A stretch of 64,000 nt of DNA from a virus (lineage: Duplodnaviria; Caudoviricetes). This document shows, piece after piece, positions 5,349-33,700 of the stretch (position 1 is the stretch's first letter; each line of letters starts with the position of its first letter). Made by a program: the position numbers and the translations under genes. The notes beneath the pieces are model-generated. The model was not told where the DNA came from. It made no database searches and saw only the letters and a list, made by a program, of their open reading frames with translations. The stretch is from the IMG/VR virus record IMGVR_UViG_3300012344_000386, positions 32,001-96,000 of that record. One strand, given 5' to 3'.

Positions 5349-6005
5349 TTATTTAACCTTAAAATGAAGTTCTTCAATTTCTTCTTCATAAGGTGCCGAT
5401 GCCATTTGATACTCTTCAGGAAGATTAATCCAATTAGAATAAAGAATATCACGAGTTTCAAAATAGTTACATTTTGTCTCATAATAATACATCATACGAA
5501 TCTGATGACGTTTATCTTCTGTAAGTTCGCCATCAAATGTATACATTAATGGCTTATGAGTTCCATAATGTGTACGAACAACAAGAATATTCTCTTTCTT
5601 ATCTTTATCAACTTCATCCTTATAAGGATTTTCTCCATGTCCATCATATGAATCAAAGATTTCTTTTGCTAAACGCTCACGACTTGTCATCTTCTTTGTA
5701 TATGTAAAATTATGAAGATCCAACTTCACAACAGCAGTAAGATAATCCATATTATCTATAATAGCATCTGTCAACTTCTCCGATGATTGAATATCATAAG
5801 TCTTCAAAAATGAATATAGCTCATTATATGAAAAATGTTTCTTCAATACATTACAAAGAGTAGTAAACAAAAACTGCTGAATACCCTTATAACCCAAATT
5901 ATATGTGGTGTTCTTATTATTAAGAGAAATGAACATATTTCTTACATCATTCTCTATCTTAATTGAAGAACTACTTGTACCGTTGAAAATATCAATAATA
6001 TCCAT
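5349..6005 (-). CDS. hypothetical protein (likely early)
   Basis: 218-aa TAG-free ORF preceded by a TAnnTTTG element. Confidence 0.75.
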   Translation of the reverse strand: MDIIDIFNGTSSSSIKIENDVRNMFISLNNKNTTYNLGYKGIQQFLFTTLCNVLKKHFSYNELYSFLKTYDIQSSEKLTDAIIDNMDYLTAVVKLDLHNFTYTKKMTSRERLAKEIFDSYDGHGENPYKDEVDKDKKENILVVRTHYGTHKPLMYTFDGELTEDKRHQIRMMYYYETKCNYFETRDILYSNWINLPEEYQMASAPYEEEIEELHFKVK

Positions 6006-6239: not shown

Positions 6240-7010
6240 TTAAATATAAAGGATATGTTGATTCATTATTTTTTCCTTAGAACCTGAAACAGTAGCGGCA
6301 CATATACCAGATTTTGACTAACCTAATTTTGTATCGATATTAGCTGCCATCGTCTATAACAATGTCATAAGTTGTGTAGCATTAACAGCGCATGTATTAG
6401 GTGTTGTTCCTTTTATACGGACAGCAGATGTTCCATTTAATGTTATAACCTTTCCCTCTATATTAACTTCATTACCTGATGTTATATTAATCTACTATGG
6501 TGCCTATATATAAACCTTACCGTCTGTTAACTATATTTGTACACCTGTTGTCTCGTCAGGACCATAATGAATAGTTATAGTATTATCAGGTGTCATCTAC
6601 ATATAAGAACCTTTATAATATAAAGCTAAACCAGAACCTGGTTGAAACTTAATAGACAAATCATATTCCGAGTCATAAAGAAGAACCTATGAACCTGCAT
6701 AATCAGACGCCAATTCCTCTGAAAGTTTTCTGTCCAATGTATTTGTTCCATACCATTCCATGGAGTTTACATCATCCTATGCAAATCTAACTCTTACCTT
6801 TGTTCCTACACGTGGTATAGAAATCTATCCACCACCTGAACCTGAAAACATACCACTTCCCGCGTAATTACACCATGGTAAATTCTCTGTTGATATGTTA
6901 TCATGTAAACCTGCAACCCTAACTTTTACTCTTCCTGAACATGTTGGATCATCAATAGACTCAACTACACCAGTTTTTACCTTTTTTGTATTATTTTTAC
7001 TATCTGCCAT
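6240..7010 (-). CDS. baseplate hub/spike protein, gp5/VgrG-type OB domain plus beta-helix (256 aa, TAG=Gln)
   Basis: GVVESIDDPTCSGRVKVRV..LPW...IPRVGTKVRVRF; beta-strand repeats; frame open to TAA at 6240 only with TAG readthrough. Confidence 0.85.
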
Positions 7011-7081
7011 ATATCTAAATTATTTAGTTTCAATTAATTATAAACTTTTTTCAATTTTTATTAAAAATATTTCTTAAAAAT

Positions 7082-7460
7082 GTAGACTTTTTCTTCAAAA
7101 GTAAGTAAAATAAATACTGGTATTTTGAGAATCTAAGATATTTAAGAAATTATATAAAGAAATTTAGTTTAAAATTAATTTTTATATTTATTTTTAATAT
7201 TTAGTAAGGTAAGTCATGGAAAATTGTAAAAATATTTTATTTTAATTAAATATTATTTAGAATTTGTATAAATTAATAAAAATTATATATTGATTATCAA
7301 TAAGTTATAAATTATTTTTAAAAATTATTAAAAATATTTAAACAAAAAGTAGACTTTTTTTGAAAAGTGAAGTATAATTAATATTAAGATATTAAGGTAA
7401 TGATAGATATTTAAGAAATTAAATAAAGAAAATTAAATTTAGATTTGAAAAATTAATTTC
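7082..7460 (+). repeat. two imperfect ~100-bp direct repeats, each with a TAGACT-N17-TA(T/A)AAT promoter
   Basis: tagactttt..aaaagt..gatatttaagaaatta.ataaagaaa at ~7082-7180 and ~7350-7460. Confidence 0.6.
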
Positions 7461-7679
7461 TTTTTGGTTCTTTTTCTTTGCCTACTTTCTTTTTGAACAT
7501 AGATTTTTAGAGAGATAAATATTATAGGATCAATTTTTATTTAAGTTTAATTTATGATTTCTTTTTGAAAACTTTTTCTTTGACTCTTTCTTTTTATTGA
7601 TTGAAATTCTTTTTGAGAATAAAACTTTATTTTTATTAAATGATATAATATATAAAGTATTATTATAAACTTTTGATTT

Positions 7680-8210
7680 ATGGATAAAGAAAATGAAGTA
7701 GTAACAGAAAATAATAATTCTATAGATAATAATCAAGTTCAACAAACTAATCAGAATAATAATGTTAATTCACAACAAAATTCATTGGAAAATTCATTGA
7801 GTAATCTTCAAGATAAGTGGACAGATATTATTAAGAATTTAAATGAACGAATGAAAGATTTGAAATCTATTGATGGTTTGATGAATGAAGTTTATTTAAA
7901 GAGACAAGAAGCAATAGACTTATTTTATGGAACAGCAAAGATATTACAAAAGCAAACGAGAGATTATAAGTCTAAAGCATCAGGAATTTATTTAGCTTTA
8001 AAATCAGGTTCATCTGGAATTAGATATACGAATGAAAGTGCTATTAATTTACAGATTGAATCTCAGTTATCAGCAGAAAAAGAATCAGTTGATTTATTGG
8101 ATAATTTCTGTAAATATATGAAAGATACCATCTCAACTATTGATAATATTATTTACGGTATAAACAATAAGATTAAAGTTTTTGAAATGATACATGGTTT
8201 AAAATTTTAA
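7680..8210 (+). CDS. UvsY-like recombination mediator (helical protein)
   Basis: Size and C-terminus (YMKDTISTIDNIIYGINNKIKVFEMIHG) resemble T4-like UvsY; function tentative. Confidence 0.5.
   Translation: MDKENEVVTENNNSIDNNQVQQTNQNNNVNSQQNSLENSLSNLQDKWTDIIKNLNERMKDLKSIDGLMNEVYLKRQEAIDLFYGTAKILQKQTRDYKSKASGIYLALKSGSSGIRYTNESAINLQIESQLSAEKESVDLLDNFCKYMKDTISTIDNIIYGINNKIKVFEMIHGLKF
8157..8210 (+). repeat. copy A of duplicated 54-nt gene end (translated copy)
   Basis: Encodes GINNKIKVFEMIHGLKF*; 49/54 identical to 9502-9555. Confidence 0.95.
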
Positions 8211-8218
8211 AAAATATT

Positions 8219-9352
8219 ATGTTAAAATATATTAAAATACGAATATATCCTGATAATGTTTAGAAAGAATTTATTTCTAAACAGTTAGGTTGTTGTAGAC
8301 TTATATATAATAAATTATTGGATTATAAGAAGTCATAGTATGAGTAGAATAAACAAGTTGTATCATGGACACAATTAGGTAAATATTTGACTAATTTAAA
8401 AAAACAAGATGAATATACTTTTTTAAATGATGTATATGCTATGTGTTTATAGCAATCAATGTAGGATTTAATTAAAGCATATGATAATTTCTTTAAATTA
8501 CATAATGGTTATCCTAAATTCAAATCAAAGAAAGATATTAAGCAAAGTTGTAGATTTACAAGAACTATATTTAAATTTAAAAAGAAGAAAATTAATGGTA
8601 ATAGGATAACATTAATTAAATAGTTAAAGAATATATTATTTAAATGTTCTAAAAAAGATGAAATATATTTAAATCATAATCAAAATAAAATACATTCAAT
8701 TACGCTTATTAAAACTTCTACAGAAAAATATTATTTGTTTATTTTAATATATTATAATATTATACAAAAAGAAAAATTAGATACCGTAATAGGTTTAGAT
8801 TTAGGAATAAAAGATTTTATCGTTGATTCTAATGGAAATAGATATGAAAATAAACATTTCTATAGAAATCAAGAAAAGAAATTAAAGAAATTATAGAGGT
8901 TGTTAAGTAAGAAATAGAAAGGAAGTAATAATCGGAATAAAGTTAGAATTAAAATTGCAAAAGTTCATGAGAAAATAAAAAATTAGAGAAATACATATTT
9001 ACATCAAATCACTTCAAAACTAGTTAATGAAAATCAAGTTATCTGTATTGAAGATTTAAATGTAAATGGAATGATGTCTAATCATAAACTTGCTAAATCT
9101 ATTCAAGAGTTATCTTTATTTGAATTTAGAAAATAGTTAGAATATAAATGTAGATGGTATGGAAAATAGCTGGTTATAATAAATAGATTCTATCCTTCAT
9201 CTAAAACTTGCCATAATTGTAGACATATTTATAAAGATTTAAAATTAAGTTAGAGAGAATGGATATGTCCACATTGTGGTAAAGAGATTGATAGAGATTA
9301 TAATGCTTCATTAAATATTTTAGCAGAAGGATTAAAACAAATAAATTATTAA
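8219..9352 (+). CDS. tnpB: TnpB RNA-guided endonuclease (IS200/IS605/IS607 OrfB family; 377 aa, about 12 TAG=Gln)
   Basis: KIRIYP..Q...[21 protein letters not shown], RuvC GLDLG / CIEDL / DRDYNA, zinc finger CHNC..CPHC; absent from the standard-code ORF track. Confidence 0.95.
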
Positions 9353-9357
9353 AATAT

Positions 9358-9520
9358 AATAGGTGTATATTTACCCGAATTTACGCTTGCGGAGATACCA
9401 ACTATGGATGACTAAATCATTACTAATGATTATACTAAAAAGTAGAGTGTCTATGAAACAAGAAATAATTGTTTATATATTAGTATATAAACACAAATAT
9501 TGGCATAAATAATAAGATTA
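9358..9520 (+). ncRNA. putative TnpB omega/reRNA scaffold plus guide
   Basis: Directly 3' of tnpB; cccgaatttacgcttgcggag...tctatgaaacaagaa resembles tnpB right ends; hairpins aatcatta-c-taatgatt (9415-9431) and tgtttatata-ttag-tatataaaca (9470-9493); boundaries approximate. Confidence 0.7.
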
Positions 9521-9555
9521 AGGTTTTTGAAATGATACATGGTTTGAAGTTTTAA
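9502..9555 (+). repeat. copy B of duplicated gene end (displaced copy, predicted guide source)
   Basis: ggc ata aat aat aag att aag gtt ttt gaa atg ata cat ggt ttg aag ttt taa; five synonymous differences from copy A. Confidence 0.95.
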
Positions 9556-9579
9556 TGAAATTATATTAAATAGAAAAGT

Positions 9580-9625
9580 AAAGAGATTAATAAGCAATAA
9601 ACAAAACTTATTAATCTCTTTTTTA
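9580..9625 (+). terminator. intrinsic terminator after the displaced gene end
   Basis: aaagagattaataag...cttattaatctctttttt. Confidence 0.8.
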
Positions 9626-9770
9626 TTTTATGAAAATTATTATTTAATAAAATTCTCTCTGTATCACATTATTTTTAATTAAGACTAATAACTATAAGGT
9701 AAAGAGATTTTGACGCGATGCAGGAGAGATATTGTATCAAATTTCGAGTTTTATGTTTTATTAGTTATTA

Positions 9771-9968
9771 TCACAATAATTTAACATTACATGCATTACC
9801 ATATTTTCCATAAGGATTTACTGAGCATGCTTTTTGCATAGCGGTGAAAAACTTAATATTTTCCTTAGGAATTAAGACTGGACAATTATCAACATAATAA
9901 CCACCATCCTAACCAATTTTACCTTTTATATTTTTATTTTTAACTGAAGACTTTTTAATAGTTTTCAT
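9771..9968 (-). CDS. small hypothetical protein (65 aa, one TAG)
   Basis: MKTIKKSSVKNKNIKGKIGQDGGYYVDNCPVLIPK...; manual translation. Confidence 0.5.
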
Positions 9969-10071
9969 ATATTAATTAACCGGTTATTTTTATTATTTAT
10001 AAATGTAAACAATAACCTAATAATATAATATAATATTTGTTGTTATTTAAGATTTTAGTTTTAATTAATAT

Positions 10072-11328
10072 ATGGCAGAAAAAAAGAAAGATACAAATAA
10101 AAAAGAAAATAAGTGTTCATTTTGTGGTAAGACGAAAGACCAAGTTGCATTACTTTTTAATGGTGAATATGGAAGTATTTGTAATGAATGTTGTGACCAG
10201 ATTTACAATATGAATTTGAGTATAGTAAATCATAATACACAGTTTTTACCACCAGATGATAATTTTCATAAGGATGATGTAAAAAAACCTACAGAGATTA
10301 AAGAATTTTTGGATCAATATGTAATTGGTCAGGATAAAGCGAAACAAAGGTTAGCAGTTGCAGTTTATAATCATTATAAGAGAATTAAACAAAAAGGATT
10401 TGATGATGTAGAGATTGAGAAGAGTAACTGTATACTTTTGGGAGACACTGGTACTGGTAAAACACTTTTGGTTAAGTCTATTGCTAAAATGTTAGATGTA
10501 CCAATTAGTATAGTGGATTCTAATTCTATCACCGAAGCAGGATACGTTGGTGATGATGTTGAGACTGCAATCACAAGACTTCTCCAAGCATGTGATTATG
10601 ATGTTAAGAAAGCAGAACACGGAATAGTATTTCTTGATGAGATTGATAAGATTGCAAGGAAATCCGGAGGAAATCCATCTATAACAAGAGATGTTTCAGG
10701 TGAAGGCGTTCAACAAGCATTACTTAAAATAATTGAAGGTTCTGTTGTAAATGTTCCTCCAAAGGGAGGAAGAAAACACCCGGATGCTAAAATGGTAGAG
10801 GTTGATACAAAAAATATTTTATTTATTTGTGGTGGTGCTTTTGTTGGTTTGAATAAAATTATAGAGAGACGAGTTAATAAATCTACATTAGGATTTGTAT
10901 CAAAGGATAAGAAATATTTTTCTGATAATAAAGAAAACATATTTAAATATGTAAATGCGGAAGATTTAAAGAATTATGGTTTGATTCCTGAATTAATTGG
11001 TAGACTTCCTATTATTACATATCTTAATCCTTTAACTGAAGATGATTTGAAGAGAATTCTTACAGAACCGAAAAATGCTATTATTAAACAATTTAAGAAG
11101 TTGTTTAAATTAGATGGTATTGAACTTATAATAGATGATGAAGTTTATGATTATATAGTTAAGTTATCCATTAAGAATAAATTAGGCGCTAGGGGGTTAA
11201 GAGGAATAGTAGAGAATCTTATGGATGATGCAATGTATAATTTACCGGCGTCTAATGAAAAAGAATTTCATATAACTATAGAATATGCGAAAGAAAAATT
11301 AAAAGATTATGAAAATTCTTATGAATAA
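10072..11328 (+). CDS. clpX: ATP-dependent Clp protease ATP-binding subunit ClpX
   Basis: CSFCGK zinc-binding domain, [36 protein letters not shown]. Confidence 0.97.
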
Positions 11329-30700: not shown

Positions 30701-33700
30701 GAATTTATACACTAATATCTAATGTACCATATTATACAATATCAGAACAATCAAGTGAAAAAGTCGGAAATATTAATTATATAGGTCAAGAAATAACAAT
30801 GAATGAAAATATTAATGATGTTTAGTAGTATTTTTATTTTTGCATTCATTATTAGAACAATTATAAAGAATCTTCTACTACTAGGATTATATAGATATGT
30901 CAAAAGGAAGCAACAAGAGCATATAATTTATCGTATTTAGTAGATGATCCTAAGGATAGTATTGAAGATAATGAGACGCCGAATAACAATAAAATATATG
31001 GAATTAGACATAAAGATGGTAATATCTATAAAAAGATAAATGATTATTATATATATTGTGATCCTACAGAACAAACATTAACATTATATTTAGGATTATA
31101 TTGTAATGATCATATAGATTTAGATTATAAATAGCCATTTGATAAAAAAACCGGTGAACTTAAAGGAAATCATATAACAATTAAAAAAGATGATATTTAT
31201 TTATCATCAAATGATGAAATTACTATTGTAAAAAACCCAGAATTTAATGATACTGATAATTATTATGAATTTACTGTTTAGTTAAGTGATATAACGTCAA
31301 AAACAGAAAATACTACTTATAGTTTATAGTATAAACGAAATTATACATATTACAATTATAATAATGGTAAGTCGGTAAATACTACTGGAAAATCAAACTA
31401 TTTATATATTAAAAGATTTGCATATAATACTACTAATTATACATTATATATTGGATTTTATAATAAGGATGGAAATAAAATAATAACATCTATATCTAAT
31501 AATAAGAATGAGAATAATGATATAATATATATACATTATTATTTAACAAAAGCTGATGATAAAGAACAAAAGAATAAATTAGATTTATCAAAAATAAAAT
31601 ATGATTTTAAATTAACATTAGGCGATGAAAATATATCAATTGATTTTTCAAAAATAACAAAAAGTGATGATAATGTATATTCATATCCATATGCAGTAAC
31701 AGATAATATCACAGAGAATGAACGTAATTTAGTTGCTACAGTTTCAATTAATGAGTCGTTAAATGCATCAGACACACTTAAATAGTCAGGCACAACGTAT
31801 AGTGTAATTATAAGAGACAATCCCGATTTTAACGGTTCTGATTATGTCGATTATAGAAAAAATGGTAAGAAGATTATATAGACACTATATTTTAAAGGTG
31901 GACCAGATAAATCATTTGATGACAATTTAACACATTATAATATAACATGTGATGATATAAGTGTAATACGAAGTGATAAAGAAAAATATGAAGATGAAGA
32001 TAAACCGTGTTATAAAATAACTGTTACTATTCCTGAAAATGATAGTACAACTTCTGATAAAATATATAAAATAACAGTAAAATATTAGTATAGTGATATT
32101 ACAAAAGAATATTTGTCTACTTTTATAATATATCAGGGTAAATCAAATATTAATGCTGTTATAAATTTAACGAGTGGTACAGTAGATGGAAAAATAAACA
32201 ATGCAGGGGAAACTATAACTCTTGAGTGTTATGGTGAACTTAATGGTGATGAAAAATCAGACGGTGAACTTACATGCTCAGATTCAAGTATAAATATACC
32301 TGAACCTATAATATCAGGAACAAGATGTATATATAATATTGAAATTGGTATATCATCAACAGATAGAACATTAACGTTTACATTTACATATACATTTCAT
32401 GATAGTCAAGCAAAAGCAGATAAAACATTATCACAAGGTGCAGGAGAGTTTGAATTATTTGTTCATGCATATTATATGAGAGGTTCAACAAAAGTTGAAG
32501 ATGATATGGAAGAATTAGCATTGCAAGCTACTGATTCAGGCTATTTTTATTTATAGTATTATGCAAAAGTAAAAAATGGTACATATATTGATACTAATTA
32601 GTCACATTATGAAGTTACATATGAAAAATATAATGATGGTGATATGACATATGAGTATCTTGCTGATTTTAAAACAGAAGAAACATCATTAAAAGATGAT
32701 AAATTAGAATTAAAATGTAAATTTAGTTAGAATCCAAAAGACTCAGATTATGATTATGAGAGGTGTGTTAATTTTACGGTAAAATATAATATAGGTTCAG
32801 TTGACAATAAAATAATGTTAATTAATCAAGCAAGTGCGTTTGCTATTGGATTAGCTTCATTTGATTTTTTATTATTTGAATATATATTTTTAAATAATGC
32901 TGGTAGTTCACATATTCCATCAGAAAAAAATAAATTGACTGGTTCTGATTTGGATACAATAACACATATTACAAATAATAAAAATATTAAAATGAATATA
33001 ACATCTCATAATAAAACATATATATTAAATAATACAACAATGGGATTTTCTGAGACTTTATATCCAAGTACAACTGAATATTGGCATCAAACGAACAATT
33101 ATACAGAATATGAAGATATACTAGGTTTTTCTGGAGATAATAGATCAGGTTCATAGGAATCTATATTTATTAATATGAAAGAAATTTTAGCATAGATTAG
33201 TAATACATTATTAGAAAACAAATGTAAATATATTTACATAGATTTATATGGTCATATGTGGAGTCAGTTATGTAATGGACGTGTAAAAGTAACATATCGT
33301 ACATTTAAGAATAAAGGGAGTAACCCATCAATAACATTAGATAGAAGCACAGAAAAATATATTTTTAATACAACTGATACAGAAGTAAATAAAGAATAGA
33401 CAAAAACATATAATTTAACTGTATAGGAAGCAAATATAAAAAGTTCATATACATGGTTAGCAAGACTTACATATAATGTAAAAACAGGAAGTGGACAATT
33501 AGATTCTAGAAATTTATATGGTTATAAAAAAAGTACTGATAATGGGTTAACAGTATTTAATAGAACATATGCAGATAAAAATAGTGCATGTTTTTATATA
33601 GAAGGTTATAAATAGTATGATGATACGATTACATTAAAAACAATTAATATATCATATAGTGAAAGAAGTAATGATACAAGTACATATGATTTTAGTAGTT

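Follow-up and report, generated by a model that had tools for sequence, protein, structure and literature searches.

A tnpB gene between two copies of a gene end in a Lak megaphage, a candidate transposase-free homing element

How does a tnpB gene without a transposase persist inside a coding region of a lytic phage? This question is raised by a locus in a 64,000-nt stretch of DNA, here called the window, which covers positions 32,001 to 96,000 of IMG/VR virus record IMGVR_UViG_3300012344_000386 (a 249-kb record, 45% complete). At this locus, a conserved 176-aa gene has its last 54 nt present twice in near-identical form, with tnpB and a putative RNA gene between the two copies. The explanation that we favor, and hold with about even confidence, is that the unit is a transposase-free TnpB homing element that carries a rescue copy of its target gene's end and that was made by recombination.

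The 3.5 kb around the tnpB locus is 98.8% identical to Prevotella phages Lak-B2 and Lak-B4, and ~78% identical to Lak-A1, Lak-A2 and Lak-C1. Reassignment of TAG is known in Lak phages, and the window fits this pattern, in that many of its long open reading frames (ORFs) are open only when TAG encodes an amino acid. These comparisons indicate that the window belongs to a Lak megaphage of Prevotella in which TAG is read as Gln. The features of the locus are as follows.

7680-8210, plus strand: conserved 176-aa Lak phage gene, an ORF with 0 in-frame TAG codons; its last 18 codons are copy A
8154-8156, plus strand: TAC (Tyr), the triplet 5' of copy A that is equivalent to the target-adjacent motif (TAM), from alignment with seven empty alleles, all of which have TAT
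8157-8210, plus strand: copy A, the functional gene end including the stop codon; differs from copy B at repeat positions 3, 9, 21, 45 and 48
8211-8218, plus strand: 8-nt spacer, all that remains of a left end that is ~200 nt long in the family; other copies are homologous from 8214 onward
8219-9352, plus strand: tnpB, 377 aa (TAG = Gln), with 12 in-frame TAGs and RuvC residues D194, E278 and D360
9356-9474, plus strand: conserved core of the presumed omega-RNA scaffold, with a hairpin at ~9410-9430 whose stem sequence varies while pairing is kept
9475-9501, plus strand: right-end tail, akin to the family tail (.. TTTAAAACnAAAACTAT)
9502-9555, plus strand: copy B, the displaced gene end, which is untranslated; the predicted guide is formed by its first 16-20 nt (9502 to ~9521)
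9570-9631, plus strand: terminator-like hairpin and run of T, from folding; an equivalent feature lies 3' of the gene end in empty alleles

Copies A and B are identical at 49 of 54 positions and lie 1345 nt apart. A BLAST comparison of the 500 nt upstream of tnpB with the 500 nt downstream gave E = 2e-16. In a control, upstream and downstream flanks of other phage tnpB loci were mismatched with one another, and none of the 73 pairs had a repeat of at least 25 nt. All five differences (ggt/ggc, aac/aat, aaa/aag, tta/ttg and aaa/aag) are synonymous third-position changes. Of the 153 single-base changes in the 17 repeat codons, 26 are synonymous, and the chance of five synonymous changes in five is ~1.4e-4 under uniform mutation. 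Thus, the arrangement described in an earlier note on this DNA, two copies of the gene's last 54 nt around tnpB that differ only synonymously, is confirmed. The terminator that the note placed 3' of the downstream copy is also present: the hairpin at 9570-9631, with its T run, folds at -17.7 kcal/mol (z = -4.5), which was equalled by 0 of 200 shuffles. A simple terminator scan missed this hairpin because it has a 12-nt loop and few G-C pairs in its stem; the promoter and terminator scan, which found fewer promoter-like sites than in shuffles and 0 terminators, is uninformative for a Bacteroidota phage.

The interrupted gene has 43 homologues, and the C-terminus GINNKIKVFEM(I/M)(H/N)GLKF is present in all five full-length ones that were read (P0002-P0005 and the window's own). 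Among them, P0002 is 99% identical and P0003 97% identical (on a 3657-nt contig). The earlier note called the gene uvsY-like. A neighbour cluster in a protein atlas, in which 21% of members carry PF11056, gives a faint hint in this direction, but the product matches no family in Pfam or PHROGs, and we keep the name as a lead.

The protein encoded between the two copies is an ordinary member of the TnpB family. It matches the Pfam families OrfB_IS605 (1e-25), TNB, a zinc ribbon (3e-25), and HTH_OrfB (9e-17), all above curated cut-offs, as well as PHROG 506 (4e-122). It aligns over its full length with ISDra2 TnpB (8bf8/8exa; E = 1e-60). In this alignment, D194 and E278 correspond to ISDra2 D191 and E278, and D360 corresponds to the third acidic residue, which we take to be D361. 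The substitutions D191A and E278A abolish the activity of ISDra2 TnpB (PMC8612924). The presence of all three RuvC acidic residues, as read earlier from the sequence, therefore stands, and the triad is kept in 11 of 11 family copies, namely the window's tnpB and the ten further Lak copies described below. Ratios of nonsynonymous to synonymous substitution rates (dN/dS) between the window's tnpB and the other ten copies are 0.08-0.21. By these measures the nuclease is intact and under purifying selection.

Gln15 of TnpB is encoded by TAG in 11 of 11 copies, and TAG codons occupy conserved Gln positions. The TnpB family has therefore long been resident in TAG-recoded phages, and it is not translatable by the code of the host. 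Across the window's copy and its ten sisters, TAG accounts for 7-17 of the 21-29 Gln codons of TnpB. Because the 176-aa gene contains no TAG, it and the adjacent tnpB may perhaps be translated at different stages of infection.

The proposed guide depends on the position of the right end of the element, which was located by using its relatives. Lak genomes yielded ten more tnpB copies, whose proteins are 66-87% identical, as well as a single right end without tnpB, and element ends were set by comparing each copy with its empty site, with use of the whole Lak-B2 and Lak-A2 genomes. Most of these copies lie directly 5' of a gene's ATG. A conserved block (.. GAAACAAGAAAyAnAGGTTTTT) is followed by a tail of ~25-50 nt (.. 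TTTAAAACnAAAACTAT), and then by flanking sequence. At clean empty sites (L012, L015 and L016 versus Lak-A2; L010 versus G001), the right end finishes in TAT and the flank follows directly. When the ten family tails are compared with 9475-9501 of the window, the scores are 5-11, and 8 of the 10 reach at least 8; the 95th percentile of the null is 8. Upstream of the tail, the presumed scaffold is conserved in 11 of 11 family sequences, and its hairpin is found at the same position in all 11 with at least four different stem sequences.

Thus, the right end falls at ~9501, and copy B begins where IS200/IS605 elements template their guide. According to the rule for these elements, the guide is templated from the DNA that abuts the right end (PMC8612924). 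We infer that copy B serves as the guide template and that the omega-RNA guide consists of its first 16-20 nt. The location that the earlier note gave to copy B, at the guide position, agrees with the ends of the ten Lak copies. Two other boundaries were considered and rejected. If 9475-9501 were diverged gene sequence from 5' of copy A, the duplication would be longer than 54 nt; however, the score against that sequence is 6, within the null, versus 8-11 for most family tails. A guide start just after the GGTTT block (~9475) was proposed because conservation seemed to stop at 9474, but the right ends of L012, L015 and L016 run 25-50 nt further. Similarity at L010 and L012 that could be read as target duplications of 17-57 nt lies largely inside the right-end tail and may be an AT-rich resemblance.

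Empty versions of the site exist. Seven loci of other Lak genomes (L002-L008, including Lak-A1, Lak-A2 and Lak-C1) lack one copy and the element, and their single gene end runs directly into the equivalent terminator hairpin. These seven genomes are ~76% identical to the window. Closer empty alleles come from three public sequencing runs of one study, in each of which a contig of 625-634 nt joins 8162 to 9508 and so skips exactly 1345 nt; these contigs are ~94% identical on the gene side and ~91% identical downstream. An empty contig that is less closely related and resembles Lak-A is also present in the same three runs. Lak-B2 and Lak-B4 both have the element at this site. Presence/absence polymorphism here is therefore real, as the earlier note had predicted, with exactly one copy and the element missing from the empty form. 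A search with a degenerate pattern for the 18-codon gene end recovered just the contig of L005 among viral contigs and 0 among metagenome contigs. In runs X1-X3, no contig bridges 8210-8219, although contigs cannot show that the occupied allele is absent; runs X1-X4 hold small shares of the window's sampled words.

The empty alleles also suggest which motif marks the target. TAT lies directly 5' of the target in the empty alleles of six of six loci (L010, L012, L015, L016, L017 and the window site), and at the L011 site it is found in Lak-B2, with AAT in Lak-A2. At the window site, TAT precedes GG in seven of seven empty alleles (TTTAT in five, ATATAT in two). In the occupied allele, copy A is preceded instead by TTTAC, a synonymous change of the Tyr codon. 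Right ends also finish in TAT, and each boundary is therefore ambiguous by 3 nt. The trinucleotide TAT makes up 5.3% of the window. The comparison with seven empty alleles fits an altered TAM at copy A, raised earlier as a possibility, although it rests on few sites.

Among the empty-site genomes, one of 553 kb (L002/L017) has a tnpB copy of 85% protein identity ~1.2 kb upstream of its empty window site. This copy has the opposite orientation, and the genes on its two sides are homologous to window genes 5349-6005 and 6240-7010.

A further characteristic of the window's element is the loss of its left end. The gene stop ends at 8210 and the tnpB ATG is at 8219, which leaves 8 nt. Of the 11 family copies, 9 have a left end of ~200 nt that includes a conserved stem; the window's element lacks it and shares with family left ends just the last few bases before the ATG. 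Therefore, the earlier reading of an 8-nt gap without a left-end hairpin is correct. In L010, L011, L013, L017, L024 and L031, the arms of the left end were read ~50-140 nt upstream of the tnpB ATG. These arms are 8-10 nt long and ~80 nt apart, and their complementarity is kept through changes on both sides (for example, GGCCGGTTAA/TTAACCGGCC, GGAAGGTTG/CAACCTTCC and GACGGGTTG/CAACCCGTC). They could form either a DNA hairpin for the lost transposase or a structure of the 5' untranslated region.

The transposase is also missing. No Y1 TnpA (PF01797) above cut-off was detected in any of five related Lak genomes or in the window's own record, in agreement with the claim that tnpA is absent, and no transposase ORF fits into 8210-8219 or 9352-9502. 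A serine recombinase (PF00239, Resolvase) was detected in one of the five related genomes (Lak-C1, at an unrelated locus) and in neither the window's own record nor the complete Lak-B2 genome. Because it has no transposase and no left end, the window's element is presumably unable to transpose. Mobilisable tnpB-only elements have both ends, whereas here the right end is present and the left end is missing. Thus, the element is neither an autonomous IS605/IS607 element nor a tnpB-only (IS1341-type) element that TnpA could mobilise in trans. It also shows no sign of the group I intron of an IStron, as no Rfam family was matched up to E = 1 in 7000-10500. In the main text of the paper on Lak phages (PMC6784885), the terms "transpos", "IS605" and "homing" are absent; its supplements may list transposase-like genes.

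The Lak-C1 recombinase locus (L171, 17.4-19.5 kb) encodes a Resolvase-domain serine recombinase (2.4e-24) followed by a 449-aa ORF without a Pfam family. This arrangement is IS607-like, contains TAG codons in both genes, and was seen in one of the five Lak genomes.

The anatomy of the locus suggests how such an element could spread. It would be a tnpB-only derivative of an IS200/IS605-superfamily element that is resident in Lak megaphages and no longer transposes. Insertion would have taken place between TAT and GG, 54 nt before the stop codon of the conserved 176-aa gene. Copy B, directly 3' of the right end, would give the omega-RNA its first 16-20 nt as a guide, and copy A, 8 nt upstream of tnpB, completes the 176-aa gene. 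In a cell infected by two Lak phages, one with and one without the element, TnpB and the omega-RNA would cut the TTTAT and target of the non-carrier. The break would then be repaired by recombination with the carrier, and copy A, tnpB and the RNA gene would thereby be transferred, which would amount to transposase-free homing. Copy A in the carrier itself would be spared from cutting by virtue of TAC in place of TAT and of mismatches at guide positions 3 and 9. Co-infection and extensive recombination have been reported for B-Lak phages (PMC6784885).

The duplication itself most likely stems from recombination that brought two Lak lineages together. This could have been a crossover within the element, involving two insertion alleles close to each other, or a join at microhomology that removed the left end. 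Selection would keep those products that restore the gene, keep the element and escape cutting. Copies A and B look like two natural alleles of the gene end, both constrained by coding, that were joined by recombination. For this reason, we do not retain the earlier description of copy A as a "recoded replacement end", which implies design.

Several observations weigh against the homing interpretation, or at least against parts of it. The earlier note proposed that empty alleles carry the copy-B sequence followed by the terminator. The terminator is indeed directly 3' of their gene end, but their five diagnostic sites are a mixture of A- and B-like states. Position 9 is B-like in seven of seven empty alleles, as it is in the closer 625-634-nt contig, where it is the sole position read, and position 21 is B-like in five of seven. 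However, position 3 lies in GGA, neither A- nor B-like, in six of seven and is A-like in L004; position 45 is mixed; and position 48 is A-like in all seven. Thus, copy B is not identified as the resident allele by the five sites. Moreover, copies A and B share ATA CAT where five of seven empty alleles have ATG AAT, and both copies are therefore B-lineage alleles.

The mismatches between guide and copy A, proposed as the means of escape, are similarly equivocal. The guide has two mismatches to copy A, at positions 3 and 9, but it also has two to each empty allele that could be read; in Lak-A2 these are at positions 3 and 6, and the Lak-A allele reads GGAATTAAT... Because the numbers are equal, the TAM would have to provide the discrimination, unless there is an empty allele that matches the guide perfectly, none of which was seen. 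The TAM, in turn, is a TAT-like motif as inferred from 6-7 insertion sites. The first 12 nt show no significant excess of differences (4 in 24 nt versus 5 in 85 nt; Fisher p = 0.11). The RNA scaffold has no match in Rfam, and the fold of 9340-9521 by itself is unremarkable (z = -1.1).

The arrangement is not unique to this locus. The earlier note suggested a search for other tnpB loci with duplicated gene ends, and one was found at L011, where a 56-nt repeat comprises the end of another gene plus 6 nt. With its left copy the gene is complete, and an entire left end comes next; its right copy abuts the right-end tail. All four differences between the L011 copies are synonymous (chance ~1.5e-3). 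Less favorable to homing with self-immunity is the fact that the left copy at L011 retains TAT, so TAM loss is not general, and that two outgroups split at the L011 diagnostic sites. At L032 (Lak-B2), a 46-nt flanking repeat accompanies a truncated left end, its three differences are non-synonymous, and no gene is rescued. Duplication can therefore arise in this family without rescue. Thus, 3 of the 11 insertions of this family have flanking repeats of at least 40 nt. Outside it such repeats are rare: of 141 IMG/VR phage tnpB loci, the best 80 include two with a repeat of this kind, one of which is L011.

L032 (218.4-219.6 kb of Lak-B2) keeps its RuvC triad, and the middle of its scaffold is replaced or broken. 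Next to its right end lies a duplicate of the initial ~19 nt of a gene whose true start is 135 nt further on, where CTAT precedes it. The copied gene start would be a self-target if the RNA worked. An unrelated phage tnpB with a 43-nt flanking direct repeat containing two indels is found on IMG/VR contig L158, whose TnpB is 41% identical.

These loci bear on the strongest competing explanation, that the duplication is a recombination scar without a selected role. In that case, illegitimate or unequal recombination between two Lak lineages, by a crossover inside the element or a microhomology join, would have produced the 54-nt duplication as a by-product; the element would be inherited vertically, and the guide-like position of copy B would be inconsequential. 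The split of derived states between copies A and B, as expected for two natural alleles, fits this view, as does the duplication without gene rescue at L032. The two junctions at L011 are both ordinary and 56 nt apart, as would be produced by a crossover between two insertion alleles; the crossover route thus fits L011 because both junctions are of the ordinary kind. The left end of the window's element is truncated at AT-rich microhomology, and extensive recombination among B-Lak phages is on record (PMC6784885). However, purifying selection, the intact triad and the conserved scaffold imply that something selects for the RNA-guided nuclease. A mere scar also does not lead one to expect two independent loci at which a gene end is duplicated, all differences are synonymous and the gene is made whole by the left copy, nor the altered TAM-equivalent base beside copy A. 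Furthermore, a scar accounts for the origin of the duplication and not for the persistence of the element, and it is compatible with later homing. On balance, we consider a scar alone possible but rather unlikely.

Another use of the same machinery would be as a weapon. TnpB might cut the gene end of element-free Lak phages during co-infection and thereby exclude them or favor linked markers, with copying of the element incidental. The anatomy expected of a weapon is identical to that expected of homing, the target gene is conserved in all Lak relatives, and interference between co-infecting phages that is mediated by endonucleases has precedent (PMC11620839). The two possibilities are indistinguishable at the sequence level, but the known empty alleles have two seed mismatches to the guide, and we regard a weapon as improbable.

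TldR-type proteins lack the RuvC catalytic residues, which the window's TnpB retains, and so the view that the immobile unit is a decaying relic or a tamed, TldR-like nuclease-dead RNA-guided repressor is least probable of all, as the lost left end, the broken scaffold of sister copy L032 and the solo right end L033 in Lak-B2 are outweighed by a full-length TnpB with its triad, dN/dS of 0.08-0.21 and a scaffold that is intact in the window.

Returning to the homing interpretation, a stronger form of it can be proposed tentatively, at less than even confidence. Lak megaphages might carry a natural RNA-guided "home-and-rescue" drive that has given up transposition and spreads only by guide-directed cutting during co-infection. 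An element inside a needed gene would persist by means of a spare gene end that is synonymous, TAM-altered and immune to cleavage, while the displaced native end would template the guide. The duplications in the family (54, 56 and 46 nt) would then be footprints of moving and retargeting by recombination.

Parts of this arrangement have counterparts in known systems. The closest protein relative is ISDra2 TnpB with its reRNA/omega-RNA (IS200/IS605; PDB 8BF8, 8EXA and 8H1J; PMC8612924), which shares a full-length protein match and RuvC residues with the Lak protein. In both, the RNA gene, which is putative in the Lak element, lies at and beyond the 3' end of tnpB, and the guide is expected to come from DNA that abuts the right end. 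A short motif 5' of the target, also putative in the Lak element, serves both as target mark and as insertion motif. Unlike ISDra2, the Lak element has neither TnpA nor a left end, its insertion motif is TAT-like and not TTGAT, and its home is a lytic megaphage, with TAG used as a Gln codon. IS200/IS605 elements are described in PMC8612924 and PMC13565253 as making no such duplication, whereas the Lak element is flanked by the 54-nt repeat.

Spread of IS605 insertions that is independent of TnpA and driven by TnpB has been proposed, and is reported for plasmids (PMC11870625; reviewed in PMC13565253). As in this "non-restorative" TnpB homing, the Lak element is proposed to cut the unoccupied homologous site so that repair copies the element in without a transposase (PMC11870625, PMC13565253). 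The plasmid case involves an ordinary complete element; in the Lak case the replicon is a co-infecting phage, and the element lies in a coding region with a substitute gene end. The intronless homing of Seg and Mob nucleases in T-even phages likewise proceeds during co-infection by cutting and recombinational repair, as proposed here, and self is told from non-self there by few substitutions in a conserved gene (PMC13565253). However, the Seg and Mob nucleases are protein-only and lie between genes, and their target is not duplicated (PMC13565253).

A likeness in gene arrangement is found in fungal mitochondria, where free-standing homing endonuclease genes lie between a complete gene and a leftover 3' duplicate (PMC6279837). 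In atp6 and cob of Endoconidiophora resinifera, as at the Lak locus, the endonuclease gene separates a complete host gene from a duplicate of its 3' end (PMC6279837). Those nucleases (GIY-YIG, LAGLIDADG) recognize their targets by protein, whereas recognition by the Lak element would be by RNA, with the leftover copy predicted to template the guide. A search of the literature, with supplements outside its reach, found no paper that describes a phage tnpB flanked by duplicated gene ends. New is the way in which these features are combined: the nuclease is of an RNA-guided family, and the gene end that its insertion displaced would be the source of the guide.

Cas12 descends from TnpB, whose known role is to restore the transposon after excision by TnpA. 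A TnpB under selection in a lytic phage, without transposase and left end, points to a second lifestyle in which it would move between co-infecting genomes purely by RNA-guided homing. Residence of such an element inside a coding region without an intron would be explained by the spare gene end. Synthetic "home-and-rescue" drives, engineered with Cas9 in insects, cut the 3' part of a needed gene and carry a recoded, cleavage-resistant replacement. The Lak unit resembles these by analogy only, but its spare gene end would be a natural counterpart of engineered cut-and-rescue gene drives. A tnpB between two synonymous copies of a gene end is suggested as a signature for searches.

Two other repeats were noted in these phages. 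The intergenic region 5' of the 176-aa gene (7021-7460 of the window) contains a pair of ~170-nt units that are 72-77% identical and spaced by 267-269 nt, and the pair is kept in all Lak relatives examined. A dispersed repeat of ~80-95 nt, 77-96% identical (for example, L010:1652-1750), is found at more than 100 places in five Lak genomes, with dozens of occurrences per genome.

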